This document shows positions 4,037 through 24,132 of a DNA stretch of 41,500 nt, in pieces. The DNA comes from a virus. A program made the position numbers and the translations under genes. Where the stretch lies: UHGV virus genome UHGV-0377100; one strand, given 5' to 3'. The notes beneath the pieces are model-generated. The model did no database searches. It was not told where the DNA came from and saw only the letters and a program-made list of their open reading frames with translations. Each line of letters starts with the position of its first letter. The stretch's first letter is position 1.

Positions 4037-4453
4037 TTGATTAAATTGCTAAGAGAAGTAGATTTTCGACAAACAAAAGCGAATGCCAGAAATGTGTTGA
4101 AGAACTTTAGACGTTTAGAGCGAATAGCTGGTCGCTCTTTGATAGATTTAAAATCACCAATTATTACAGATATGCCTAAAAGCCAAAGTCACGGGAATAA
4201 AGCAGAAGATTCGCTAGTACAATTAGCAGATGCAGAAGCAGAAAGAGACGCAATTTTATCTGCGCTTATGGCATTGAGCCTAACTAGCAGACAAATTTTG
4301 CATTATAGTTTCTGTGTGCAGGATCATTACTCTAATTACAAGATAGCTAGGGAAGTTGGATATTCCGAAAGAAGTATTCAACGCATGAAATCAGAAGCTT
4401 TAATTGAATTTGCTGAAGCTTATCGAAATGGAAAAATAATTGCCTATAAATAA
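4037..4453 (+). CDS. arpU: ArpU/RinA-family phage late-gene transcriptional activator.
   Basis: 138 aa. N-terminus TKANARNVLKNFRRLERIAG and C-terminal sigma-region-4-like HTH (YSERSIQRMKSEALIEF) are typical of the ArpU family. Placed upstream of the packaging genes. Confidence 0.7.
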   Translation: MIKLLREVDFRQTKANARNVLKNFRRLERIAGRSLIDLKSPIITDMPKSQSHGNKAEDSLVQLADAEAERDAILSALMALSLTSRQILHYSFCVQDHYSNYKIAREVGYSERSIQRMKSEALIEFAEAYRNGKIIAYK

Positions 4454-4457
4454 AATT

Positions 4458-4486
4458 TTGGCGGTTTTTTGGCGGAAAGTTGGCGG
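4458..4486 (+). promoter_or_regulatory. Three direct TTGGCGG repeats spaced exactly 11 bp apart, immediately downstream of the arpU stop.
   Basis: TTGGCGG at 4458, 4469 and 4480, each followed by a T/A tract. The one-helical-turn phasing suggests a protein-binding array. Confidence 0.5.
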
Positions 4487-4518
4487 TTTTTATACGAATT
4501 TGAGTGCTAATATAGTAA

Positions 4519-4592
4519 TATCGAAAGTCAAAGAAATGGACACATTACACAACGCTTTCTGGTTTAGTCACCGTTTGATTTGACTTTCGATA
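4519..4592. repeat. 14-bp perfect inverted repeat (TATCGAAAGTCAAA / TTTGACTTTCGATA) separated by 46 bp.
   Basis: Arms at 4519-4532 and 4579-4592. The motif ATATCGAAA also recurs upstream of terS. Confidence 0.5.
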
Positions 4593-4678
4593 GTCACTTG
4601 CAGACTTACGTTCTCAATAAAATGAAGTGAGGTGAATAACCTCCTCTTTTTTCTACAGGTTTGCAATGAATAACACTC

Positions 4679-4707
4679 TTGATCGAACTCTAGTTCGGGT
4701 GTATAAT
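4679..4707 (+). promoter_or_regulatory. Sigma-A type promoter with an extended -10 (TTGATC, 17 bp, TGtTATAAT) upstream of the moron cassette.
   Basis: -35 TTGATC at 4679-4684, TG at 4700-4701, -10 TATAAT at 4702-4707. A weak hairpin plus T-run terminator lies just upstream at 4629-4652. Confidence 0.5.
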
Positions 4708-4827
4708 AAGAAGTATAATCCTTATGGTTATATCTGCTAGAAAGAAGTCGAGAAAAGCACTTGTTTTTCTGACTTCTTTTTGATTTAATTAATATAGCAG
4801 GTATAAATTAAATAAGGAGTGTTACAA

Positions 4828-5742
4828 ATGAACATAGGTAATTTGAGAAATTTTATTTCAAATGTTGAAGCGGATGATAATGATAGTGTTGAAATGAAAA
4901 TGATTCAAAAAATAGGGAACGGTATATGGAGTCATACTCCACAGTTGACTATAGCGATGAGGGAAGAATTAAAAGTTTTTTACACTGAAATCCTTAATAA
5001 TAATTTTTTTGATTTAGAACAAAGTGAGTATAATCCTAATATAGTAATCGAAGGTTCACTACAAGTTTCAGATTTGACAAATGCTCACATCAATGAAGTA
5101 TTAGCTGAAATAGATCTTGAAGAAAACTGTAATGATGATATGGGAAATGTAGATTTAGATAAAATAAATTATTACAGATTTAAATTTAATTATAATGGAA
5201 ATAGTCTTTATATTTTTAGACGATTCACTAAAATGAAAAAAATTAGAAATGGTATTTTAGGTCGTTTTCAGGATAATACATTTAGAAAAATAGAGACTGA
5301 TGATTTTTTTGGAATAGATCGTGATATTGATATTTTGTTATTTGATAATGAGGCACTGATAGTCAATCGCTTTGCATTACAGACTATTTTTAAGCTTAAT
5401 GATTATTTTATTGAAAGAGCGACAACGGCGTTAAGCGAACTAGAAGAAGAAAACGTATTAGTAAATTTTGAAGACTTTAAAAATGATTGTTTAAATGATA
5501 AACTGGCAGCAAGAAGAATGACAAAAATCATTAATACCGAAGGTCGTTTGGAAGGCTTTTTACAGAATACAAGAAATTTGCCTGAGGTAATTGAACATTT
5601 TGATTTAGAAATAGAATTGAATGATAATAATCAAATCATATATAACGGAAGTAAAGAAGCACGAAGTCAGATTTTATTTTGCATATCAGATGCATATTAT
5701 CAATCGCTTATACTCCAAAGATTAGGTGAAGATCCTTCATAA
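4828..5742 (+). CDS. Hypothetical cytoplasmic protein, moron gene 1 (acidic, 305 aa).
   Basis: ORF track 4819..5742 opens with GTG. ATG at 4828 sits 8 nt after the AAGGAG RBS. No family recognised. Located in the arpU-terS moron hotspot. Confidence 0.6.
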   Translation: MNIGNLRNFISNVEADDNDSVEMKMIQKIGNGIWSHTPQLTIAMREELKVFYTEILNNNFFDLEQSEYNPNIVIEGSLQVSDLTNAHINEVLAEIDLEENCNDDMGNVDLDKINYYRFKFNYNGNSLYIFRRFTKMKKIRNGILGRFQDNTFRKIETDDFFGIDRDIDILLFDNEALIVNRFALQTIFKLNDYFIERATTALSELEEENVLVNFEDFKNDCLNDKLAARRMTKIINTEGRLEGFLQNTRNLPEVIEHFDLEIELNDNNQIIYNGSKEARSQILFCISDAYYQSLILQRLGEDPS

Positions 5743-5764: not shown

Positions 5765-6349
5765 ATGAGGACGATACAGAAAACATTATTTTATATGTCT
5801 TCTTTTATACCACTTTATCTGTTATTGATTGTTCAAAACTTCAAGTTCAGAAATGAATCAGGAAAATTTTCTTGGCAAACGATCTTTGATCAAATTAATT
5901 TTTCAAATAAAATTATTACATTATTTTGGATTGGCTTAATAGTCATGATTATTCTATCATTATTTGGATGTGTTATCTTTTTTAAGATTTATGGTGCAAA
6001 AGAAGGTAGAAATGGTAGCATATCAGATGCAGAATTTGTTAGAGAAGACACTATGGGGTATATTGTGACATATATAATTCCGTTGTTATCCATGGATATA
6101 ACAAGTTTGAGAAGCTTAGTAGTTAATTTACTGTTATTTATCATTATAGGGACTTTTTATGTTAAGAACGATCAGATATTTATGAACCCATTATATAATT
6201 TATTTGGGTATAATATATTTTCTGCTGAAAGTGGAATTTATATCACTAAAATATCCAAGCAAAAGTTGAAATTGTTTGCTAAAAGAGATGTAAAAGTTAA
6301 AAAGATAAATATAATGGGAGATATATACGTACTGAAAGAAAATGAATAA
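5765..6349 (+). CDS. Hypothetical 4-TM membrane protein, moron gene 2.
   Basis: ORF track 5726..6349. ATG at 5765 follows the AAGAGGTG RBS. Four hydrophobic helices (LFYMSSFIPLYLLLIV, IITLFWIGLIVMIILSLFGCVIFF, GYIVTYIIPLL, LVVNLLLFIIIGTFYV). Tightly linked to gene 1. Confidence 0.6.
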   Translation: MRTIQKTLFYMSSFIPLYLLLIVQNFKFRNESGKFSWQTIFDQINFSNKIITLFWIGLIVMIILSLFGCVIFFKIYGAKEGRNGSISDAEFVREDTMGYIVTYIIPLLSMDITSLRSLVVNLLLFIIIGTFYVKNDQIFMNPLYNLFGYNIFSAESGIYITKISKQKLKLFAKRDVKVKKINIMGDIYVLKENE

Positions 6350-6483: not shown

Positions 6484-6789
6484 ATAAGTGGCAAAACCAC
6501 TTAAATAAATTAGGAAACGTCAATAGATGTTTCTATCCTTCACGAGGAGGCATTCGCTTGTAGGATGTCTCTTTTTATATGCAAAAATACTTATAATTAA
6601 ATCATCAGAAATACATGATAGATTATAAGGAAACATAAATATCAAATTTGTAAAGCATTATATACTAAAAAGAGAATTATATATGATCACAAGTGGCACT
6701 CTAAAAGTAGAAGAAATAAAAAAAAGTAACACTATGAAAAGTACTCAACCTAAGGTAAAATAAAACAAAGATACTTTGGGGGGGTATAT

Positions 6790-7353
6790 ATGAGTTTTGT
6801 ATCGATTGCGGGTAATAAGAAATATATCAATGTCATGAGTGATGGTTTAGCAGTATATCAGGATGGGACAAGAGAAGAAAACTGGGAAAAATTTGTCAAT
6901 TACGATAATAAAAGATTTATAGCTTTCGCAGGAACCGTCCATTATTGTCAAAATGTGGTTACAGAAGCTTCTAAATATTTAGAGTTACCATACAATCAAT
7001 GGGTGAATCGGATTAAAGAATACGTCTCAAATATGCCGTATTCACAAGAAACGGGTAAAGCCATAATCTGTGTAGGTGGTAAGGATGGAACGTTAAAGTT
7101 TTCAAGTTTTTCAAATAAACCTGGGCAAAACTTTTATGATTTTGAATTAGTTGATGATAATATTCACTATGTGTTTTTAAGCAACATGGATGAAGAGGAT
7201 TTATTGGACAAAAAGTTTATGGAATTTGTAAAGAGATATCGTTCTGCTAAATCAAGAGATGTTCTGTTAGCTCAAAGAGATTTGAATAATTATGTTTCAG
7301 ATTTGAATCCAAATACTGTGAACAAAAATACTAGTTATTTTGTTTTGAAATGA
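6790..7353 (+). CDS. Hypothetical protein (187 aa), single-gene moron cassette.
   Basis: ORF with a GGGGG RBS. No recognisable family. Has its own upstream AT-rich promoter region and its own terminator. Confidence 0.6.
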   Translation: MSFVSIAGNKKYINVMSDGLAVYQDGTREENWEKFVNYDNKRFIAFAGTVHYCQNVVTEASKYLELPYNQWVNRIKEYVSNMPYSQETGKAIICVGGKDGTLKFSSFSNKPGQNFYDFELVDDNIHYVFLSNMDEEDLLDKKFMEFVKRYRSAKSRDVLLAQRDLNNYVSDLNPNTVNKNTSYFVLK

Positions 7354-7377
7354 TAGCTATTATTTTATTAAATTGAA

Positions 7378-12883: not shown

Positions 12884-13483
12884 ATGAAAACAAAAAAACT
12901 ATTATTGCCAATGCATTTACAATTCTTTGCTGATAATCCAGATACTGGTACTGGAGGTACGGACCAACCGGCCGGAGGTCAAGAGCAAACACCGCCAGTA
13001 GATAGCGGCAAAGATAAAGGTAATGAAAAAACGTTTTCTCGTGGTGAAGTAGCAAAAATGATCGCTGCTGAAGTATCAAAAACAAAAGAAGCTTGGGAAA
13101 AAGAGCAACAAGAAAAACAAGCAGAAGCAGAAAAACTGGCAAAAATGAATGCTCAGGAAAAAGCTGAACATGAAAAGAAACAGCTAGAAGCAAAAATTGC
13201 GGAATTGGAACGTAGTCAAGCATTAGTTTCCATGTCAAAGGAAGCTTCTAAAATGCTTTCAGAGGCTAGTTTGCCGCATGACGATGATTTGCTAGGATTG
13301 ATTGTTTCAGATGATGCAGAAGCTACAAAAAAAGCTGTCGCTATTGTTACGAACTATGTATCAATGATTAAGAAAGAAAATGCTCGCCAAAAAACACCAG
13401 GTGAGGGTGGACAATTTTCAACTGATAAAAAAGAAACCGAATCAGTTGCAGCTCTTGCAGCAAGTAAACGAATTGTAAAATAG
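12884..13483 (+). CDS. Scaffold protein carrying an N-terminal L27-like (Prp) cleavage motif.
   Basis: Coiled-coil Glu/Lys/Ala-rich protein placed before the capsid gene. N-terminus MKTKKLLLPMHLQFFA|DNPD. Confidence 0.7.
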   Translation: MKTKKLLLPMHLQFFADNPDTGTGGTDQPAGGQEQTPPVDSGKDKGNEKTFSRGEVAKMIAAEVSKTKEAWEKEQQEKQAEAEKLAKMNAQEKAEHEKKQLEAKIAELERSQALVSMSKEASKMLSEASLPHDDDLLGLIVSDDAEATKKAVAIVTNYVSMIKKENARQKTPGEGGQFSTDKKETESVAALAASKRIVK

Positions 13484-13495
13484 GAGGAAATATAA

Positions 13496-14428
13496 ATGAA
13501 GAAAAAACAATTAATGAAAATGGATATTCAAATGTTTGCTCAAACATGGAATCCAGACAACGTCACTGTATTAGAGAAAAAAGATGGAACAATTCCAGAT
13601 AAGTACAACACTTTAATTTTAAAAGATGTGATGGAAAATTCTAAGTTAATGCAGTTGGCTAAATATGAAGAAATGGACGGCAAAGAAAAGAAATTCGAAT
13701 ACTTTGCAGAAGGTCCTGGGGCGTACTGGGTTGGTGAAGGCGAAAAAATTAAAACGTCTAAACCTAAATGGTTAAACGTAACGATGACTGCGAAAAAAAT
13801 TGGTGTTATTATCCCAGTTTCTCGGGAATATTTAACTTATAAGATGTCTGATTTCTTTACTCAAATGCAACCAAAAATCGCAGAAGCATTTTATAAGAAA
13901 ATTGATGCGGCTACTATCCTTGATAAAGAAAATCCATTCTCTCAATCTATTGAAAAATCTGTCATTGCAGCTAGTAATGTAATTGAGGGCGACTTGACAT
14001 ATGACAACATTTTAGCATTAGAGGATTTGCTTGGAGAAGGTGAATACGATCCGAATGCTTTCATTTCTAATCGTAAGAATCGTACAGTGCTACGTGAAGC
14101 AAGTAAAAAAATTGGTGACACAACTCAATTTATTTATGATCGTGTCAGCAATACTATTGATGGACTACCTGTAGCAGATCTAAAATCTATGGATAAGGGA
14201 AACCTTTATACTGGTGATTTTGATTACTTGCGCTATGGTATCCCATTTAACATTAATTTCAAAATTTCAGAAGAAGCTCAATTATCTACTTTAACGAATG
14301 AAGACGGTACGCCTGTCAACTTGTACGAACAAGAATTGGTTGCTTTACGAGCTACAATGGATATTGGTTTCATGGTCATCAAAGATGAAGCATTTGCTAA
14401 GATTCAAACAAAAGCTGCGGGGGAGTAA
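13496..14428 (+). CDS. Major capsid protein. A longer form to 14490 is predicted via a -1 shift near the stop.
   Basis: 310 aa ORF after the scaffold gene. N-terminus MKKKQLMKMDIQMFA|QTW carries a Prp-like motif. The -1 frame stays open from 14401 to 14490 and encodes the conserved peptide SPVVGKVTPTTNGATIELT. Confidence 0.75.
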   Translation: MKKKQLMKMDIQMFAQTWNPDNVTVLEKKDGTIPDKYNTLILKDVMENSKLMQLAKYEEMDGKEKKFEYFAEGPGAYWVGEGEKIKTSKPKWLNVTMTAKKIGVIIPVSREYLTYKMSDFFTQMQPKIAEAFYKKIDAATILDKENPFSQSIEKSVIAASNVIEGDLTYDNILALEDLLGEGEYDPNAFISNRKNRTVLREASKKIGDTTQFIYDRVSNTIDGLPVADLKSMDKGNLYTGDFDYLRYGIPFNINFKISEEAQLSTLTNEDGTPVNLYEQELVALRATMDIGFMVIKDEAFAKIQTKAAGE

Positions 14429-14501
14429 CTAGCCCTGTTGTCGGAAAAGTAACACCGACAACAAATGGGGCGACAATCGAACTAACTTAGGTGGTGTTTT
14501 G

Positions 14502-14834
14502 ATGTCAGAGATAGCAAATGATGTAAAAAAATTATTAAATGGCAGTCTTGATGAAAAATTAGAAATCATTGAAAGACGTACAAAAGATCGGCTTCAAAAT
14601 ATATTGAATGTCATTGAGTTACCAAAAAGTTTTGATTCAGTTGTATATGAAGTCACTTTAAAACGATTTAATCGTATTGGCCAAGAAGGAATGCAATCTT
14701 ATTCTCAAGAAGGTTTATCTATGGCATTTCCAGACTCTGATTTTTCTGAATATCAAGATGAGATTGAAGAGTATAAGAATAAGGAAATAGAAGAACTTTA
14801 TAAGCCTAAACGTGGGAGGTTTACATTTTCATGA
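14502..14834 (+). CDS. Head-tail connector (gp6-like).
   Basis: Position and size. ATG at 14502 after an AGGTGGTG RBS. Confidence 0.5.
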   Translation: MSEIANDVKKLLNGSLDEKLEIIERRTKDRLQNILNVIELPKSFDSVVYEVTLKRFNRIGQEGMQSYSQEGLSMAFPDSDFSEYQDEIEEYKNKEIEELYKPKRGRFTFS

Positions 14835-15166
14835 GATATTTAGATGAAATTACCTTTGTAAAAAAATCTTCAGAATCGCATTATGATCCAAATTCAGGTG
14901 AATGGATTGAAGAAGAACCGTTTAGAAAAACTGCTGATGTCAATGTAACTGATATTGGTACAAATCGTTCTATTACTATTTTCGGAAGCATTAAAGAAGG
15001 GGCTAAGGTCATTAGGACACAGCCCCTTTTCGTTATTCCAGAATTTGATTACATTGAGTTTGAGGGTAAAACTTGGGAAGTTATTACAAGTAGAGTTCCT
15101 GCATTAAGAAATAGCTTGATTATTCAGGAAGTGACTATTGATGGCAAGAAGTCAAGTAAGAATTAA
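14831..15166 (+). CDS. Head closure / head-tail adaptor.
   Basis: Overlapping start, 111 aa, position in the module. Confidence 0.5.
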   Translation: MRYLDEITFVKKSSESHYDPNSGEWIEEEPFRKTADVNVTDIGTNRSITIFGSIKEGAKVIRTQPLFVIPEFDYIEFEGKTWEVITSRVPALRNSLIIQEVTIDGKKSSKN

Positions 15167-15521
15167 TGGATTAGCTGGAATTTCTAAAAAACTAAAGAGA
15201 AATGCTCAACTTGATGATGTGAAAAAAGTTGTTAGAAATAACACAGCAGAATTAACCGCCAATATGCAAGCTGAAGCCGGAAAAGTGTTAACTGGACACT
15301 GGGAAGGTAAAAAGTTTGTTAAACCAACTGGGGCAACAAAAAGAAGTATCATTATGAGGCTTTCGAACAATGGTTTTTCTGGGCATACAGGACCAGGAAC
15401 GGAATACGCACCGTATTTAATAAACGGTACGAGATTTATGGTGAAACGTGATTTCTTTTTACCGCCGCTGAAACAACAAAAAGTGAAATTTAGAACGGAC
15501 TTGGAAAGGTTGATGAAATGA
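15138..15521 (+). CDS. Tail component (HK97 gp10-like).
   Basis: Position and size. Confidence 0.45.
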
Positions 15522-15907
15522 TTAAAACAAGAGATCAATCAATCTTCGATGAAGTGTATAAGAAGTGTCAATCACTGGGTTATGAAACCTACGATTATAA
15601 ACCTATGAATGATGTAGGTTATCCATTTGTCGAATTAGAAGATACTCAGACACTGCACCAAGCCAACAAAACTGATATTAAAGGTTCGGTTACATTGAAT
15701 CTATCTGTATGGGGATTGGCAAAAAAACGTAAACAAATATCGGATATGGCTTCAGCAATTTTTGCTGAGGCTCTATCTATTTCTGAAACGGAAGGTTATT
15801 ATTGGTCGCTCAATATCCAATCAAGCGGTATTCGGTTAGTAGATGACATTTCGACTAACACACCATTGAAGCGGGCAATGATATCTTTAGAATTCAAAAT
15901 ACTATAG
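15518..15907 (+). CDS. Tail completion protein.
   Basis: Position directly before the major tail gene. Confidence 0.45.
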
Positions 15908-15922
15908 AGAGAAGGAATATAA

Positions 15923-16453
15923 ATGGCTAATGAAGCAAAAGTAGCGGCTAAAGGTATTGATATTATTTTACTTTTCCGTTTGTTAAAAAAATCAAAAGAG
16001 GAAGCAGCATGGAAATTAGCTTTCCAGACAGAACATGAAAATACAAAAACAAAAGATAGTGACTCTGTGACCACTAAAGATGGTCCGATTCGCATCCCAG
16101 GATCATTGGAAATTGATTTTTCGGCAACATCTATTTTATCAGTCGGTGATCCGTATGTTGACCAGCTAGAAGAAGCTTTAGACAATGACGATATTATTGA
16201 AATCTGGGAAATCAACAAAGCAGAAAAAGGCACAGGAGATAATGCTGACAAATACAAGGCAACCTATTACCAAGGATACGTAACATCATTTGGTAAATCG
16301 CCTAATGCTGAAGACACCGTAGAAGTTTCATTAGAATTTGGTATCAATGGTAAAGGTGCAAAAGGATTTGCAACATTAACTGCTGATCAAGAAGAAGTAG
16401 TTCAATATGTCTTCAAAGATACGACTATTGAAACAGATGATCCGGGAAAGTAG
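15923..16453 (+). CDS. Major tail protein. A longer form to 16515 is predicted via -1 frameshift at G GGA AAG (16444-16450).
   Basis: 176 aa ORF before the Ig-like and chaperone genes. The slippery heptamer lies in the last codons. The -1 frame is open from 16441 to 16515 and encodes VDSPVVGNVTPTVDGASIELS. Confidence 0.7.
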   Translation: MANEAKVAAKGIDIILLFRLLKKSKEEAAWKLAFQTEHENTKTKDSDSVTTKDGPIRIPGSLEIDFSATSILSVGDPYVDQLEEALDNDDIIEIWEINKAEKGTGDNADKYKATYYQGYVTSFGKSPNAEDTVEVSLEFGINGKGAKGFATLTADQEEVVQYVFKDTTIETDDPGK

Positions 16454-16533
16454 ATAGCCCTGTTGTGGGTAATGTAACTCCTACAGTCGATGGGGCATCT
16501 ATTGAATTAAGCTAAGAAAGGAAAATTAATATA

Positions 16534-16989
16534 ATGGATACTTTTAAAATTTATAAAGGCCAAACCGAAGTTGTTTCCGGCACATCACCTTTAACTATAA
16601 CAGGAATGGAACCTGACACCTCAGTGCCGGCTGGTGAGTACCAAGTAACTCGTGTTGTTAATGGGAAAGAATCAGAGCGAGTAGATATTCCAGCTTTTAA
16701 AACATTGTCTATTGCTGTAACTGGCTTAGAGTTTTCTCCTAAAACATCAACAGCAGATGCGGGTACTGCAGGTAGCCGACAAATCACAGCAACTGTCTTG
16801 CCTGAAAATGCAACCAACAAAAAAGTAACCTATAAGATTACGCCTGAAACAGAAGGTCTTGCTGTCTCTGAAACAGGAAATATTACTTGGACAGAAGCGG
16901 TACCGGCTGGTGTTTATACCACAACAGGAACAACAGAGGATGGTAAAAAAACAGCTCAACACACCTTAACATTGAATAATCAAGCTTAA
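16534..16989 (+). CDS. Ig-like (Big_2-type) domain protein.
   Basis: Beta-rich, Thr/Gly-rich repeats (TYKITPETEGLAVSETGNITWT). Confidence 0.55.
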   Translation: MDTFKIYKGQTEVVSGTSPLTITGMEPDTSVPAGEYQVTRVVNGKESERVDIPAFKTLSIAVTGLEFSPKTSTADAGTAGSRQITATVLPENATNKKVTYKITPETEGLAVSETGNITWTEAVPAGVYTTTGTTEDGKKTAQHTLTLNNQA

Positions 16990-17001
16990 AATAAAATTTA
17001 G

Positions 17002-17028
17002 AGGGCAGCTTAGCGGCTGTCCTTTTCT
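17002..17028 (+). terminator. Rho-independent terminator.
   Basis: GGGCAGC-TTAGCG-GCTGTCC followed by TTTTCTT. Confidence 0.5.
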
Positions 17029-17043
17029 TATGGAGGAAAAGAC

Positions 17044-17394
17044 ATGCAAATCGAAATTAAAGGGAAAAAATATAACTGTATTTTTGGAGTCAAGTTTATT
17101 CGTGAATTGGATAAGCAGCATGGGGTAGTTCGTAATGATGTGAATCTTGGTATGGGACTAACAACATTATTACCGCAGCTAGTAAGTGGAAATATCGTTG
17201 TTCTATCTGATGTACTTTACACAGCTACCATTACGGAAAAAAGTAGACCTTCTAAGGATGAAGTAGATGAGTTTGTTGAAACTGTTGATGATATTGAGGC
17301 GTTATTTGATGAAACGTTGAAAAACTTAGAAGAAAGCAATGCGGGAAAGTTAACGGTCAGAAATTTCAAGAAAGCTCTGATGGAGAACAAGTAA
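17044..17394 (+). CDS. Tail assembly chaperone G.
   Basis: 116 aa acidic protein directly upstream of the tape measure gene. Confidence 0.65.
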   Translation: MQIEIKGKKYNCIFGVKFIRELDKQHGVVRNDVNLGMGLTTLLPQLVSGNIVVLSDVLYTATITEKSRPSKDEVDEFVETVDDIEALFDETLKNLEESNAGKLTVRNFKKALMENK

Positions 17395-17744
17395 GAGAGG
17401 AGCTAACCTCAGCTGAAGCTTATGAAAATATTCTTATTAATTGTTTTCGTTACCTAGAAATTACTGATTTATCAAAAATCGAACGAATGACTTTGTATGA
17501 ATATGAAGTTAGGCTATTGTCGTTTCAGTTAAAAAGACTTGACCATGAAAGAGACCTCTATCTTCAATCTTGGCTAAATAACCAAATTAAGGCGACTAAA
17601 GGTAAAAAATCTGAACCTTATTATAAGGAATTCAATAAGTTTTTCAATTATGAAGAACGAGAGAAGCTTATTTTGGGTAAATCATTAATTGATGAAAAAG
17701 TTGATATAGGAGCAATAGATTTATTAAGAAAAGCAAATAAGTAG
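17044..17744 (+). CDS. Tail assembly chaperone GT fusion produced by -1 programmed frameshift at G GGA AAG (17343-17349).
   Basis: The -1 frame is open from 17343 to 17744 and contains the annotated 17487..17744 ORF. The canonical XXXYYYZ heptamer sits 45 nt before the G stop. Confidence 0.6.
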
Positions 17745-17759
17745 GAAAGGAGGAAAATA

Positions 17760-20700
17760 ATGGAATCATATTCAGTCGAAGCAATACTTACTGCCACTGA
17801 TAGAACGTTTAGTAGCACGATGAGTAGCGCTGAACGTTCTATGGCTGGTGTAAACAAGCAATCTGGTGAGCTAGGGGATGGATTGGATAAAAGCACCACT
17901 AAAGGGAATCAATTAGGCAAGTCAATTCTTAGTATTGGAGCAGGTGTGGGTGCCGTAAAATTAGTGTCTACGGCCGTAAATATGGTTAAGGATTCTGTTG
18001 AAGGAGCTATTAACCGTTTTGATACGTTGAATAAATATCCTGTAGTTATGAAGGCTCTAGGTTACTCAACAGAAGATGTAGATAGATCAATGACTAAGTT
18101 AAGTGATGGAATTGATGGGCTTCCTACATCGTTAGATGAAATCGTATCAAATACGCAACAGTTAGCAATTTCAACTGGTAGCTTGAGTAAAGGAACTGAC
18201 ACAGCTATTGCATTAAATGATGCCTTTCTTGCTTCTGGAGCTTCAACTGCTGATGCAACTCGTGGTATGCAACAATATATTCAAATGCTCGGTAAGGGTG
18301 AAGTTGATATGCAGTCTTGGCGAACATTACAAGAAACAATGCCGATTGCGATGGATAAAGTTGCTAAGTCTTTCAAAGAACAAGGTGTAAACTCAGTTAA
18401 CCAATTATACGATGCCTTAAAAGAAGGAGATATTACATTTAATGAGTTCAATAATCGTTTGATTGAGTTGGACAAAGGCGTAGGTGGTTTTGCGGATTTA
18501 GCCAAGAAAAACTCAAAAGGTATCAAGACCTCATGGGCAAATATTAAAACAGCCACCGTTAAAGGTGTAACTACAGTTATTAAATCATTTGATGAATTAT
18601 CCAAAGCAGTGACAGGAAAAAATATTGCCGAAAATTTGGACTCTTTAAAAAATGTAGTGAATATAACTTTTAAGGCAATTGATGCAGCGATTCAATCAAC
18701 TATTCCATTGATGAAACTATTCGGAAAAGCAATTACGTCAATAGGTACAGCCTTAACACCATTACTACCAACAATTGCCAGTTTTGCTGCTACCTTCACA
18801 GCATTGAAAGTAATTCAGCAAGTGACAGGCTATATAAAGCAATCTGAATTGGCAATCAAAGCTTATACAACCGCAATAAGTTTATACAATGGAATATCAA
18901 AACTGGCTACGTTATCTACTACAGCACTCGGAAGAGCATGGATGTTAAACTTAGCAGCCGATAAAGCCAATTCTGCAGCAATAGCAATAAAAACTGGTCT
19001 TTTAGTGGCGCAAAATACAATCGTTGGTGTTTTGACGGGAACAATTAGTTTAGCTACAGTAGCTACAACTGTTTTTAGTACCGCTATGAAATTGTTATTG
19101 GGCCCTATTGGTTGGGTAATAGCCGCAATAGGAGGACTAGTAGCTGTAGGGGTAAACTTGTGGAAATGGTTAAATAAGGAAACTGAATCAACTAAGGCAG
19201 TTAAAAAAGAGCAAGAAAACCTTATGAAAACCACAGATGACTTGATTAAAAAGAATCAAGAACATGCACAATCCCGAAAAGATGAAGCTATTGAGTTAGA
19301 AAATACTAAAGAAAAATATAATTCAATGATTTCTGAAATGGCAACGCTCGCTGCTAAAGAGAAATTAAGTAACAGCGAGAAAAAACGTATGACAGAAATT
19401 GTTGAAGAGTTAAACGGTAAAATGACTGGTTTAAACTTAGTTTACGATGAACAAAGTAATAAACTTTCTGAAATGCCAGGTAAAATTCAACAACAAATGG
19501 ACGCATATAGCGCATTAGATAAAGCTTCTCAAGCTCAAGAAGATATCAATAAGATGTTGCAGCAAAGAAATGACAATGAAGCAAAATTAATGGAAATCAA
19601 TGCAGCTAGGGAAAAATGGAATCAGACGTTAAAAGAATCTGGCGGGAATACAAAAGAAGCTCGTGAAAATATTGAAAAATTGGGCGAGCAAGAAAAAGTT
19701 TTGATGGGCGTTCAAGAAGATTTGAGAAATGATATTATAAATACTGCTAAAACACATGAATCCGCAATCCAAACAGCTAGTCAAGCTGTAGCAAATGGAG
19801 TTTTAGAGCAGACAGTTTCTTACTATTCATTGAAGGGTAAAACAAAAGAAACAATGGATGCTATGCGGGCTGAATATTCATCGCTTGAAACAAAAGTGGG
19901 TAGCGCCTTTGATGTTATTGAGCAAAAGCAGGCTATTTCAGTTGATCAGATGGCTGCTAACTTACAGAAGAACCAAGAAGCTGTTAGCCAATGGAGCACT
20001 AATATTGCTACGTTAGCACAGCGAGGGGTAGATGAAGGGCTTTTAGAGCAACTAAGGAAAATGGGGCCTGAAGGTGCTGCCCAAGCAGCAGAATTAGTTA
20101 ATTCTTCAGATGAACAATTACAACGCTTAAATGATGTCTATCGTAATACTGGTGAAACTTCCATGAATGCGATGAAAGAAGGCTACCAGTTAGGTAAAAA
20201 TGGTGTTAATGATGAAATAGCAAGCCTCATCCCAACCCAAAAAGATACATTAATGACTCAGATTAAGAGCACCGATTTTAGTAGTGTAGGTAAAAGTGTT
20301 ACTGAAGACTTTAAAGCAGGAATTGAGAATGGTAGAAATGCAGTAGCAGAAATGACCAAAGGAATTGTTCCACAAATGGGAACCGATATGAAAGGTGAAG
20401 TTGAAAAGGCTAATTTCCCTGATATAGGTAAAGCTATCCCTCAAGGTCTAGAGAAAGGTATTGGAGCTAACAAACAATTACCTGTAAAAACATCTAATCA
20501 AATGATTGATGATGTTGTTTCTGGTGCCAGAAAAGGTTTAGATTCTCACTCTCCTTCTCGTGTATTTCACTCAATTGGTGAAGATGTTGATTCTGGATTA
20601 TCAAACGGTATCGAACAAAACGCAATGAATCCAGTAAGAGCTGTTGAGTCTATTGTTGATAAAATAATTTTTGCAATGGATAAATTGCCATCAGAAATGA

Positions 20701-22113: not shown

Positions 22114-24132
22114 ATGTTGATGGCAATGGATTTAAAAAGAGAATATACGGCAGTTTTAGATAACGCTTATAATGTTGGATATGAAAAAATTGAAAACCAA
22201 ATAGGGAATCTAGAATTTTCAATGCCGTTGGATGATCCTAAAAATGAATTTTTGCAAGAAATGTTATGGGTTGAACTAACAGATAATGAAAATGAATATA
22301 TAGGATTATACCGTGTTATGCCTTCAACGGTTCGCAAAGATGCTAGTAACAATTCAATCACGTATACGGCAAATGAAGCTCTGTGTACTTTGCTAGACAC
22401 AGTTCTTTTTGGTTATCATGAACTAGTGAATCGAAAAACGGTTGATGTTATTAACTATCTTTTGAATAAACAAAGGTCAAAACACTGGGTTTTAAAAAAA
22501 TGTGAATTCACTCGGTATTTTAGTTATGCATGGGAAAATGAAAATGGTCTCGCTGATGCCTTGTTTAGTATTCCTCAAGCATTTGATGAAGACTACATGT
22601 GGCAATGGAATACCAAAGTTTATCCATTCGAATTATCTTTAGTGAAGCCACCAAAAGAACCTGTTGCTCGTATTCAAGAAGGATATAACATGCAAGGTTT
22701 TGAGATTGAAAGAGATCCTAACAATTTAGTTAATCGAGTTTATCCTTTAGGTGCTGGTGAAGGCGTCAATCAGATAAATATAAAATCAGTGAATAAAAAT
22801 GTCCCTTATGTAGAAGATTCACAGTCGATAAAAGATCACGGTTTAGTTGAATATGTTTGGGTGGACCAACGATTCACAGTTCCGCAAGCTTTAAAAGACA
22901 ATGCAATCAACATGTTAAAAAAATGGGCACAGCCTAAAATTTCTTGGGATGTGACTGCGGCTGATTTATTGAAATTAACAGATGAACCTTTAAGCATTGA
23001 TAAGTTAAGACAAGGAACTGTGATTATGATTAACACAGATGACTTTGGAAGTATAAATTTACGTATTAAAAAAGAGACAAAACAGGATGTATTCGGTGCC
23101 CCACAAGATATTCAGCTAGAGCTTGGTAATTTATCTGACGATTTTACTACGACAATGTCTGATTTGAAACGTAAACAGGAAATAAATGAGACATACTCGC
23201 AAGGTGCAACGAATATTTTGAACTATAGTTATCAAGATAACTGCGAAAAGGCCTACCCAGCAGAAATTGAATTCTTCTTAGATGATGATGTATTTCATGT
23301 AAATACTGTAGAACTGACTTTTAAAACTAAGCGCTATCGTGGCTACACAAAAGCCGTAAAAGGAGGCGGAGCTACGGTTAAAAGTACTTCAGCTGGTGGA
23401 GCTTCAACACAAACGAGTTCAGCTGGTGGCGGAAGTGTCGTTTCAAGTTCAGCTGGAGGAGGCTATTCTAGTGGATCCACCACAGGTGGAGGAGGAGGTA
23501 GCATTCAATCCAGTTCTGTAAATGGTCAAAGCTCACAAACAAGTTCAGCAGGTGGAGATCATAATCACCTGGTTGCAACTAATAATGGTAGCACTGAATC
23601 AAGTGCATTTTATCGAGAAATGGATGCGGGGTCAGGTATGAGATTTAGACTAATGTCGACTGCATCAACAGATTGGTACACAAAGACGAGCTCAGGTAAT
23701 CATACTCATAATGTGACTACACCGGCACATTCCCACACAGTGAATACACCTAACCATAGTCACAATTTTAATATTTCTATACCAAACCATACTCACAGCA
23801 TATCAGTTCCTAGCCATAGCCACCAAGTAAGAATACCGGCACATACACACCAAATTACTTTACCTGATCATAGCCATCCATTAGAATGGGGAATTTATGA
23901 GGCACCAAGTAGCGCAACTAGTGTTGATATAGTTGTAGATGGTACCACCATTCCAGTACACGATACTAGCCAACAAAGACTAAACATTGTTAATTACCTT
24001 AGGAAAACTAGTGGCGGTAAAATCTCTAGAGGTAATCATACAATCAAGATAATACCTAACAAACTTGCACGAATCGAAGCGCAAGTTATTTGTCGTGTTT
24101 TTATACAATCACAATTAGGAGGACAATTTTAA
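22114..24132 (+). CDS. Tail-associated lysin / baseplate hub (Tal, prophage-tail endopeptidase family) with Gly/Ser-rich and HxH repeat regions.
   Basis: 672 aa after Dit. Internal SAGG(G) repeats and eight (P)xHxH repeats. Confidence 0.65.
   Translation: MLMAMDLKREYTAVLDNAYNVGYEKIENQIGNLEFSMPLDDPKNEFLQEMLWVELTDNENEYIGLYRVMPSTVRKDASNNSITYTANEALCTLLDTVLFGYHELVNRKTVDVINYLLNKQRSKHWVLKKCEFTRYFSYAWENENGLADALFSIPQAFDEDYMWQWNTKVYPFELSLVKPPKEPVARIQEGYNMQGFEIERDPNNLVNRVYPLGAGEGVNQINIKSVNKNVPYVEDSQSIKDHGLVEYVWVDQRFTVPQALKDNAINMLKKWAQPKISWDVTAADLLKLTDEPLSIDKLRQGTVIMINTDDFGSINLRIKKETKQDVFGAPQDIQLELGNLSDDFTTTMSDLKRKQEINETYSQGATNILNYSYQDNCEKAYPAEIEFFLDDDVFHVNTVELTFKTKRYRGYTKAVKGGGATVKSTSAGGASTQTSSAGGGSVVSSSAGGGYSSGSTTGGGGGSIQSSSVNGQSSQTSSAGGDHNHLVATNNGSTESSAFYREMDAGSGMRFRLMSTASTDWYTKTSSGNHTHNVTTPAHSHTVNTPNHSHNFNISIPNHTHSISVPSHSHQVRIPAHTHQITLPDHSHPLEWGIYEAPSSATSVDIVVDGTTIPVHDTSQQRLNIVNYLRKTSGGKISRGNHTIKIIPNKLARIEAQVICRVFIQSQLGGQF

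Follow-up and report, generated by a model that had tools for sequence, protein, structure and literature searches.

Why would a phage genome encode the same short peptide twice, each time in the -1 frame directly behind the stop codon of a major structural gene? The question is raised by UHGV virus genome UHGV-0377100, a stretch of 41,500 nucleotides (the window, by which we mean the whole stretch of DNA that was analyzed) that sequence comparison identifies as an Enterococcus faecalis siphophage or prophage; over the stretch compared (13400-17800) it is 98% identical to phages EFC-1 and IME197. The peptide, here called the tag, is 21 residues long and follows both the major capsid gene and the tail tube gene. 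The original prediction, made from the sequence alone, held that the tag is reached by frameshifting from the capsid gene, that it is shared with the tail tube protein, and that it might be a decoration tag. We are highly confident that the tag is translated by recoding, and we regard it as probable that it is a docking tag, dosed by frameshifting, which lets a single immunoglobulin-like (Ig-like) decoration protein attach to the capsid as well as to the tail. The early guess of a decoration tag agrees with this function, and its companion suggestions, a direct cell-wall binder or a target for host modification, found no support.

The capsid gene (13496-14428, + strand, as are the tail tube gene, the slip sites, stem-loops and tags, and the partner gene described below) encodes 310 residues in the 0 frame and ends GCG GGG GAG TAA, with the TAA stop at 14426-14428. 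Its product matches PF05065 (E = 1.8e-31) and the major head protein of phage 80alpha (PDB 6b0x; E = 1.4e-101). The tail tube, or major tail, protein gene (15923-16453) encodes 176 residues, ends CCG GGA AAG TAG with the TAG stop at 16451-16453, and matches PF06199 (E = 1.1e-18) and the NF5 tail tube (PDB 9m7c; E = 1.8e-68). Reading of the sequence bore out that the -1 frame behind the capsid gene is open only from 14401, where it reads ..GVTSPVVGKVTPTTNGATIELT up to a stop; the -1 frame at the end of the tail tube gene reads KVDSPVVGNVTPTVDGASIELS up to a stop. At both loci the result is a 21-codon tag that ends in a stop codon. The capsid tag, VTSPVVGKVTPTTNGATIELT, spans 14425-14490 including its TAG stop (14488-14490) and would give a product of 310+21 residues, with AAGEVTSPVVGK as the predicted junction peptide and VTPTTNGATIELT as the predicted C-terminal peptide. 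The tail tag, VDSPVVGNVTPTVDGASIELS, spans 16450-16515 including its TAA stop (16513-16515), and the corresponding tail product is predicted to have 197 residues and to end in ..DDPGKVDSPVVGNVTPTVDGASIELS.

In a repeat search the tag pair (14402-14485 and 16427-16510) was recovered as the longest direct repeat of the region, with 73% identity over 84 nucleotides. The two tags had been said to differ at 12 positions, which holds for codons and not for nucleotides: 18 nucleotides differ across the 21 codons, and from the Ser codon on the difference amounts to 16 nucleotides, plus one in the stop codon. The breakdown of these codon changes stands as first given, with seven that are synonymous and five that alter the residue conservatively (K/N, T/V, N/D, T/S and T/S).

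The occurrence of the tag was surveyed in 80 viral contigs that encode relatives of the 151-residue Ig-like protein whose gene lies behind the tail tag; 83 sequences were scanned by scoring every stop-terminated 21-mer, in all frames, against known tags. Scores fell into two cleanly separated groups (background at most 28, matches at least 39), every match lay on the gene strand, and all matches were in the -1 frame of a long upstream open reading frame (ORF), except for five in-frame tail fusions of the phiEf11 type; the tag therefore occurs far beyond chance. Behind capsid and tail stops it was found in ~50 related viral contigs and in many phage genomes, with the consensus xPxVxxVxPTTDGAxIxLx, which strongly supports the claim that the peptide is shared with tail tube proteins. 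Its carriers are diverse and not homologous to one another: the tagged capsids come from PF05065, from PF03864 in the case of phiEf11, from PF25209 and from unclassified families, and the tagged tail tubes from PF06199, from YomU and from one family without a Pfam match. Within a genome the capsid and tail tags resemble each other more (similarity 0.53) than they do between genomes (0.44; permutation p ~0.0015).

The sequences that precede the tag also vary. The commonest slip run is cGGGGGAG-TAA, as in the window capsid gene; other -1 runs are GGGAAAG-TAG, AAAAAAA-TAG, GGGAAAC/A-TAA and GGGGGAA-TAA, and one group of contigs (L036) has the run C_CCA_AAA one codon ahead of the stop, followed by the tag SVAPVVDKITPTTTGVIIDMKEGI. 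Further lineages would reach the tag by a +1 shift at CCC_TAA or CCC_AGC_TAA; two contigs (L070 and L071) have CCC_TAA followed by the tag KKPVNLKASDTTETSITLTWD. Tags of the +1 variants are very different in nucleotides and encode the same peptide, that of the A-B strands of a fibronectin type III (FN3) domain. In an SPbeta-like Oceanobacillus prophage (L087, 7850-8252), only the tail tube protein YomU is tagged, with a +1 site at CCC_TAA, and the capsid is without a tag. In phiEf11-type tails the tag is fused in frame to give a 197-residue protein, in two independent sequence variants. These fusions (L002 4494-4568, which is phiEf11, and L013 and L026-L028) have one extra base in the slip region, and as read from these genomes every tail tube subunit of such phages would be tagged.

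Conservation of the tag is that of a coding sequence. Among 37 distinct tags, the ratio of nonsynonymous to synonymous polymorphism (pN/pS) is 0.56 in the tag frame versus 1.09 and 1.29 in the other frames, and entropy at the third codon position is 1.35 versus 0.82 and 0.74. This pattern, found only in the tag frame, upholds the proposed purifying selection on a translated peptide; chance and a role of the RNA alone are therefore disfavored.

Both slip sites adjoin the stop of the 0 frame. The capsid site, G_GGG_GAG (14419-14425), is non-canonical, yet it is the commonest and most conserved slip site among the relatives. As judged from its codons, the P-site Gly tRNA would re-pair perfectly (GGG to GGG), and the A-site Glu tRNA (GAG to GGA) would re-pair with one G.U at the middle position. 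The tail site, G_GGA_AAG (16444-16450), follows the canonical X_XXY_YYZ pattern and is identical to a heptamer in the first tail assembly chaperone gene (17343-17349). A stem-loop lies within the coding sequence of each tag and starts 6 nucleotides after the heptamer. The one in the capsid tag (14432-14471) has a folding energy of -19.5 kcal/mol (z = -2.84; none of 200 shuffled sequences folded as well), and the one in the tail tag (16449-16503, with its core at 16457-16496) has -22.2 kcal/mol (z = -2.92). Most relatives have an equivalent GCCC../..GGGC stem, with a mean z of -2.2. The predicted stem-loops lie within the spacing of 5-9 nucleotides expected for stimulators of -1 frameshifting and are likely to be such stimulators. 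Neither tag hairpin has a T-run terminator signature and neither tag element matches an Rfam family; that the tags hold an intrinsic terminator, or belong to a known RNA family, was rejected on these grounds. An apparent weakening of the hairpin in the in-frame phiEf11 tail was dropped as a candidate difference, since it disappeared once the flanks were folded too.

Published protein data on relatives, in addition to the comparative data, support a -1 frameshift at the G-run beside the capsid stop. The capsid gene of phiEf11 gives two bands of ~41 and 38 kDa, ~3 kDa apart, in sodium dodecyl sulfate polyacrylamide gel electrophoresis, and its tail protein of 21.5 kDa migrated anomalously at 28-30 kDa; for the capsid, the authors proposed a -1 shift at AAAAAAA, a 21-residue extension and a downstream stem-loop (Stevens et al., 2016; PMC5221750). 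The phiEf11 capsid gene, ORF10, thus resembles that of the window in having a slip run before the stop, a 21-residue extension (IEAPKVESVIPTTDGASIVLS), a downstream stem-loop and, in the protein data, two capsid forms. The capsid family and the slip site are different; phiEf11 is 93% identical to the window from 14449 onward, and its capsid gene differs. The view that a short shared peptide was undescribed consequently holds in part: the 21-residue capsid extension had been proposed for phiEf11, and the link to the tail was not made there. That study covered the capsid only and missed the same peptide in frame on the tail protein (ORF15), the nature of ORF16 as an FN3 domain without two strands, and the breadth of the element (PMC5221750).

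Similarly, the Staphylococcus aureus Triavirus phages (phi12, 47 and ~100 others) have capsid and tail genes that both end TTA_CCC_AGC_TAA, and their +1 frame reads ..LP followed by AKPQKVNVTAKAKSAVISAE after the capsid gene and ..LP followed by ANPQNVEVAVNSKSATVSAE after the tail gene, each up to a stop; here too an Ig-like gene comes after the tail tag. In S. aureus phage 47 (L085/L086), the capsid and tail genes (4046-5209 and 6729-7370) share the terminal 12-mer TTACCCAGCTAA before their +1 tags, and the predicted +1 junction is ..SLP followed by ANPQNVEVAVNSK. MALDI-TOF mass spectra of intact virions of six Triavirus phages gave common peaks (Stverakova et al., 2018; PMC5923470), of which only two were assigned, the one at 23,295 to the tail protein and the one at 15,871 to the Ig-like protein. 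For phage 47 we computed 23,294.7 Da for the tail protein minus Met (reported 23,295 m/z), 15,871.2 Da for the Ig-like protein minus Met (15,871 m/z), 30,374.8 Da for the mature capsid protein from Leu114 (30,373 m/z) and 25,204.7 Da for the +1 frameshift tail product (25,208 m/z). The 25,208 Da peak matches the tail protein plus tag, by mass and not by tandem mass spectrometry identification, and none of the annotated phage 47 proteins has a mass near it. The other peaks in common fit doubly charged species: 7,936 the Ig-like protein, 11,645 the tail protein and 12,598 the tail protein plus tag. By these mass matches, Triavirus virions seem to contain both the Ig-like protein and the extended tail protein in abundance. 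A covalent, SpyTag-like link between tag and partner was rejected for now, as the virion masses are those of free proteins. The 30,373 Da peak fits cleavage of the capsid protein between MEAQR and LLHALP (at Leu114), a maturation site that we did not find stated in the published account (PMC5923470).

The partner proposed for the tag is encoded immediately downstream. The gene for the 151-residue protein (16534-16989) lies right after the tail tag and comprises an N-terminal domain of ~59 residues (16534-16710), an FN3 without strands A and B that we propose as the socket for the tag, and a C-terminal Ig-like domain of the He_PIG/Big_2 type (16711-16989, stop included) that we propose as the displayed module. 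The latter matches PF05345 (E = 2.4e-6), PF02368 (E = 6e-4) and the Big_2 domain of PDB 7quz (E = 2.7e-7). The 151-residue protein and all of its relatives begin, at the initiator Met, with the constant domain of ~59 residues (the N-domain), which has the pattern MxxFKIYKG..ESPLTITG..EYQ..ESE.VDIPAFKTLP. What follows it varies: the modules found there are Ig domains (one or two), G5, HeH and mucin-like stretches rich in Thr, and some relatives have no module at all.

Several comparisons indicate that tag and N-domain are two parts of one FN3 fold. One homologue (P0062) matches PF00041 in Pfam. The N-domain of L070 alone aligns with positions 32-83 of the fn3 profile (34.4 bits), so that strands A and B are missing; when joined to its own tag it aligns with positions 2-83 (49.5 bits). 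The tag itself covers only positions ~2-31 of that profile, and its 21 residues are followed by the conserved stop. For a profile of 17 concatenated tag and N-domain pairs, the best PDB match was FN3con (4u3h; E = 0.0014), in an alignment that spans the junction, with strands A and B (PGNLRVTDVTSTSVTLSW) matched by the tag and the strands from C on by the N-domain. From these alignments, the tag looks like a beta-hairpin equivalent to FN3 strands A-B. AlphaFold2 models of two homologues (P0012 and P0179) have a confident N-domain in which the E-strand segment is without a sheet partner, as expected if strand B is missing. A Foldseek search with the N-domain aligned FN3 domains over just ~55-60 columns; with the whole P0012 model it returned generic Ig arrays only. 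An unsplit homologue, with tag and N-domain in one chain, was not found in a profile search of 5.8 billion proteins, in which all 120 listed matches cover the N-domain only.

A structural precedent is provided by the baseplate of phage Tuc2009. The first-ranked Foldseek match of the N-domain model was chain B of 5e7t, the Tuc2009 protein BppA (template modeling score 0.64; root-mean-square deviation 1.4 A; 59 columns; 27% identity), and the A3 profile matches residues 225-282 of the same chain. The aligned part is taken to be the C-terminal BppA domain 2, because the A3 profile matches the same region. In the Tuc2009 structure, BppU has a C-terminal extension of 25 residues, a beta-hairpin that "completes one of the beta-sheets" in domain 2 of BppA, yielding a composite titin-like domain (Legrand et al., 2016; PMC4742702; PDB 5E7T). 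When concatenated tag and N-domain were aligned by hhalign with the BppU hairpin (296-321) and BppA domain 2, both halves were covered (probability 94.7%, E = 5.9e-8, 71 columns), and the tag paired with PPTNLIVSDVTSTSAKISWE. The BppU end, ..KPPTNLIVSDVTSTSAKISWENGG, is an FN3 A-B hairpin like the tags, and the end of BppA domain 2, ..SESVAFKTTLPK (..VAFKTTLPK), resembles the ..DIPAFKTLP end of the N-domain. By BLASTP, BppA domain 2 (230-286) is 37.5% identical over 56 residues to the L070-type domain and 27.8% identical to that of the window. Tag and N-domain are homologous to the BppU hairpin and BppA domain 2, and the proposed docking is therefore seen in a homologous module. In Tuc2009 a C-terminal hairpin of a structural protein (~25 residues) completes an incomplete sandwich (~57 residues) that belongs to an accessory carbohydrate-binding protein, and here the tag would do the same for the N-domain. 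In Tuc2009, however, the hairpin is in frame on a baseplate protein, hence on every copy, and BppA carries the socket at its C-terminal end, whereas here the hairpin would be placed by frameshifting on some copies of capsid and tail tube proteins, and the proposed socket is N-terminal in one partner that would serve two carriers.

The tag and the truncated-FN3 gene also occur together. At every locus with enough upstream sequence, that gene starts 1-18 nucleotides after a tag stop, and the tag that precedes it stands behind the tail gene or, depending on the lineage, behind the capsid gene. Close tail tube homologues in NF5 and Tuc2009, phages that lack a truncated-FN3 gene, have neither the tag nor the slip site. 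No tag was found in the contigs L072-L082, which share only the Ig domain; their capsid gene has the same cGGGGGAG-TAA, and the shift there leads straight into that domain. Three of them (L072, L076 and L078; ~6100-6230 / 6990-7090) have the same capsid family and slip site as the window and an Ig domain ~68% identical to the displayed one of the window; in them the split arrangement has a covalent counterpart. In NF5 (L089, 1780-2080), likewise, a capsid frameshift product is annotated, gp6.1, which contains a domain of the Big_2 kind; no decoration protein was reported in the 2026 cryo-electron microscopy paper on this phage. PDB sequence searches retrieved no solved virion that contains the tag and socket system.

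By tblastn, the N-domain is present in 604 INPHARED records, which comprise 488 from Staphylococcus, 112 from Enterococcus and a few others. The Triavirus tail tag is found in only 109 of the 488 Staphylococcus records, and those beyond Triavirus include Silviavirus; in the other Staphylococcus records the tags may have diverged, or attachment may be of another kind. In the window, one TAA and 18 nucleotides lie between the tag and the ORF behind it, which are in the same frame. As a general mechanism, simple read-through of the tail tag's stop codon into that ORF was discarded, because the gap varies from 1 to 18 nucleotides and the relative frame of tag and partner gene is not conserved across loci. 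At 16516-16536 in the window, and at the equivalent positions in L003-L073, frameshifted ribosomes would terminate at the ribosome-binding site of the socket gene. Coupling of tagged carrier and partner synthesis by termination and reinitiation is conceivable from this arrangement, because the socket gene starts so closely behind the tag stop.

The mechanism that we propose is as follows. A fraction of the ribosomes would slip by -1 at the last two sense codons, on G_GGG_GAG in the capsid gene and on G_GGA_AAG in the tail gene, aided by the stem-loop that the tag's own codons form 6 nucleotides downstream, and the shifted ribosomes would append 21 residues and then stop. The appended peptide would be a beta-hairpin equivalent to FN3 strands A-B, and the hairpin on a tagged capsid or tail subunit would insert into the incomplete FN3 of the 151-residue protein and complete its sandwich. 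The Ig-like protein would thereby be held non-covalently on head and tail, with the number of decorated subunits set by the efficiency of frameshifting. That the tag acts as such a docking strand pair is, in our judgment, likely. We infer the physical binding of tag and socket in this phage, and likewise the frameshift efficiency and the biological role of the displayed Ig domain.

Several observations weigh against the docking of an Ig-like protein on frameshifted tags. Mass spectrometry of phiEf11 did not detect the extension peptide, and the authors called their idea speculative (PMC5221750); in Triavirus, a peak for capsid plus tag (~32,310 Da) is missing from the reported shared list, and the 25,208 Da assignment is a mass match. 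Window-type tag and N-domain sequences gave no match to Pfam fn3, and a tag-only profile returned nothing meaningful from the PDB. The Pro and Gly-Ala codons that are invariant in the tag also build the outer stem of the hairpin, so that protein and RNA constraints are confounded, and the likeness of the two tags within a genome could stem from shared ancestry or gene conversion. Moreover, in the AlphaFold2 models of P0012 (truncated FN3, two Ig domains, tag) and P0179 (truncated FN3, linker, tag), the tags are disordered (predicted local distance difference test scores of 55-72) and undocked in cis. Docking in cis may be sterically blocked in these two proteins, with chaining in trans instead, because their linkers are short and rich in Pro and Glu and the termini of an FN3 domain lie at opposite poles.

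The undocked tags of these models, along with the tail tube C-arms of NF5, 80alpha and SPP1, which make inter-ring contacts and which a tag would lengthen, could also speak for a tag that is translated and acts by itself, as a C-terminal arm that staples subunits or stabilizes the lattices, with the Ig-like protein attached otherwise or not at all. We consider this unlikely: that one tag sits on non-homologous capsid and tail families speaks for an external partner in common and not for contacts specific to each carrier, the tag adjoins the truncated-FN3 gene and strictly co-occurs with it, its homologue, the BppU hairpin, has the completion of BppA domain 2 as its sole known role, and tags are also found at the C-terminus of the partner protein itself. 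Alternatively, the arrangement might be a relic, in which an ancestral frameshifted FN3-Ig array was cut by a stop in the B-C loop and the pieces persist without interaction, with the 21 residues tolerated and the downstream protein free or non-functional. Such an origin would account for the shared frame and short spacing of tag and downstream ORF in the window, and for the uninterrupted frameshift extensions into the Ig domain that L072, L076, L078 and NF5 keep. It is nevertheless very improbable, given that the split is kept in lineages of Enterococcus, Staphylococcus, Brochothrix, Oceanobacillus and Virgibacillus whose slip sites, frames and spacings differ, that a second tag stands on another structural gene with no FN3 remainder behind it, that the tag frame is under purifying selection, that the protein search yielded no unsplit version, and that the Ig-like protein is abundant in Triavirus virions.

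Other explanations concern the level at which the tag is read. Both 60-nucleotide elements fold into stable hairpins, with the invariant Pro and Gly-Ala codons in the outer stem, and could in principle be untranslated, serving as an mRNA-stabilizing or processing hairpin or as a partial terminator after the two most expressed late genes. This is hardly credible, however, in view of the codon-position pattern and pN/pS that are specific to the tag frame, the slippery heptamers that abut the stops, the fusions in frame that exist both in tails of the phiEf11 type and C-terminally on partner proteins, the +1 variants that differ in nucleotides and keep the FN3 A-B peptide, the missing terminator and Rfam signatures, and the protein doublet and matching mass published for relatives. 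If RNA polymerase slipped and put one extra base into the G5 or A7 run, the protein products and the downstream function would be the same: an insertion of one base yields the same frame, A7 is the slip run of the phiEf11 capsid gene, and compared with the window the in-frame phiEf11 tail is longer by one base in this run. Transcriptional slippage is quite improbable all the same, since the runs in GGGAAAG and GGGGGAG are, by textbook knowledge, short for polymerase, the hairpin is conserved at the 6-nucleotide spacing typical of ribosomal -1 sites, and the +1 lineages use CCC beside a stop or rare codon, a classical ribosomal +1 site (PMC5009743).

Ribosomal delivery of a docking tag has relatives among known systems. 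Ig-like or FN3 domains appended by frameshifting have been described for Lactobacillus A2, Listeria PSA, A118 and A500, SPP1 gp17.1*, T3 10B and NF5 gp6.1 (reviewed in PMC5009743). As in the A2/PSA/SPP1 type, a programmed shift (-1 or +1) at the 3' terminus of the gene for a major capsid or tail protein would give a minority extended form that displays an Ig-type module; in that type the direction of the shift seems not to matter, and fusion in frame occurs too (PMC5009743). In contrast to the whole covalent domain of these phages, only two strands (21 residues) are appended here, and the rest of the domain together with the displayed module comes from a separate gene. The G_GGA_AAG heptamer is the same as in lambda-type G/GT frameshifting, which differs in that the shift occurs in mid-gene, leads into a long ORF and serves assembly rather than decoration. 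In the donor-strand complementation of chaperone-usher pili, a pilin supplies a single strand, and SpyTag and SpyCatcher are joined by an isopeptide bond. Both resemble the present system by analogy only, with no homology, in that an incomplete Ig-type fold is completed by one or more strands of another polypeptide, and here no covalent link is indicated.

Frameshift extensions of phage capsid and tail proteins, the proposal for phiEf11 and the completion of BppA by the BppU hairpin are already known. The combination of frameshifting with hairpin docking, a tag shared by two unrelated lattices, the breadth of the element, its self-tagged variants and the re-reading of the Triavirus spectra are apparently undescribed; a literature search retrieved no description of a docking hairpin delivered by frameshifting to capsid and tail. 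The docking model offers a function for the short capsid extension of phiEf11 and for the gene annotated as 'second major tail protein' or 'Ig-like protein' behind the tail tube gene in hundreds of Staphylococcus and Enterococcus phages, as well as an explanation for the 25.2 kDa peak in the virion spectra of S. aureus Triavirus. In this economical design a single gene would serve to decorate both of two unrelated lattices, and recoding would set the stoichiometry. Should the model be confirmed, tag and socket would be a natural non-covalent docking pair (~21 and ~59 residues) usable for cargo display on therapeutic E. faecalis and S. aureus phages, and the annotation of phages would be affected, as extended capsid and tail forms are almost never annotated.

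The available comparisons lean toward a still more general scheme, a split-FN3 'plug and socket' of Firmicute phages in >600 sequenced genomes, including S. aureus Triavirus, E. faecalis phages like phiEf11 and EFC-1, Brochothrix phages and an SPbeta-like prophage. A -1 or +1 shift would put the plug on a set fraction of capsid and/or tail tube subunits, one socket protein with exchangeable modules (Ig, G5, mucin-like, HeH) would decorate both, and proteins of the P0012 and P0176 type would chain into filaments. In ten clusters (P0012, P0166, P0171, P0172, P0176, P0179, P0182, P0187, P0189 and P0190) the N-terminal truncated FN3 is accompanied by the protein's own C-terminal A-B tag, which follows a linker of Pro and Glu residues. 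This architecture suggests, from the sequences, that self-tagged socket proteins chain head to tail; such variants (P0012, P0176 and others) could do so as pilins do.

The remaining genes around this locus include that of the scaffold protein (12884-13483), upstream of the capsid gene, and, beyond the partner gene, those of the tail assembly chaperone pair (17044 onward) and the tape measure protein (17760 onward). The first chaperone gene (17044-17394) contains the G_GGA_AAG heptamer in frame at 17343-17349, and its -1 frame stays open to 17744, through the annotated second chaperone ORF, as in classical G/GT frameshifting. A third -1 site is proposed because the chaperone gene holds this heptamer with an open -1 frame; the phage thus appears, from its sequence, to have three -1 shift sites (capsid, tail tube and chaperone), with the same heptamer at two of them.

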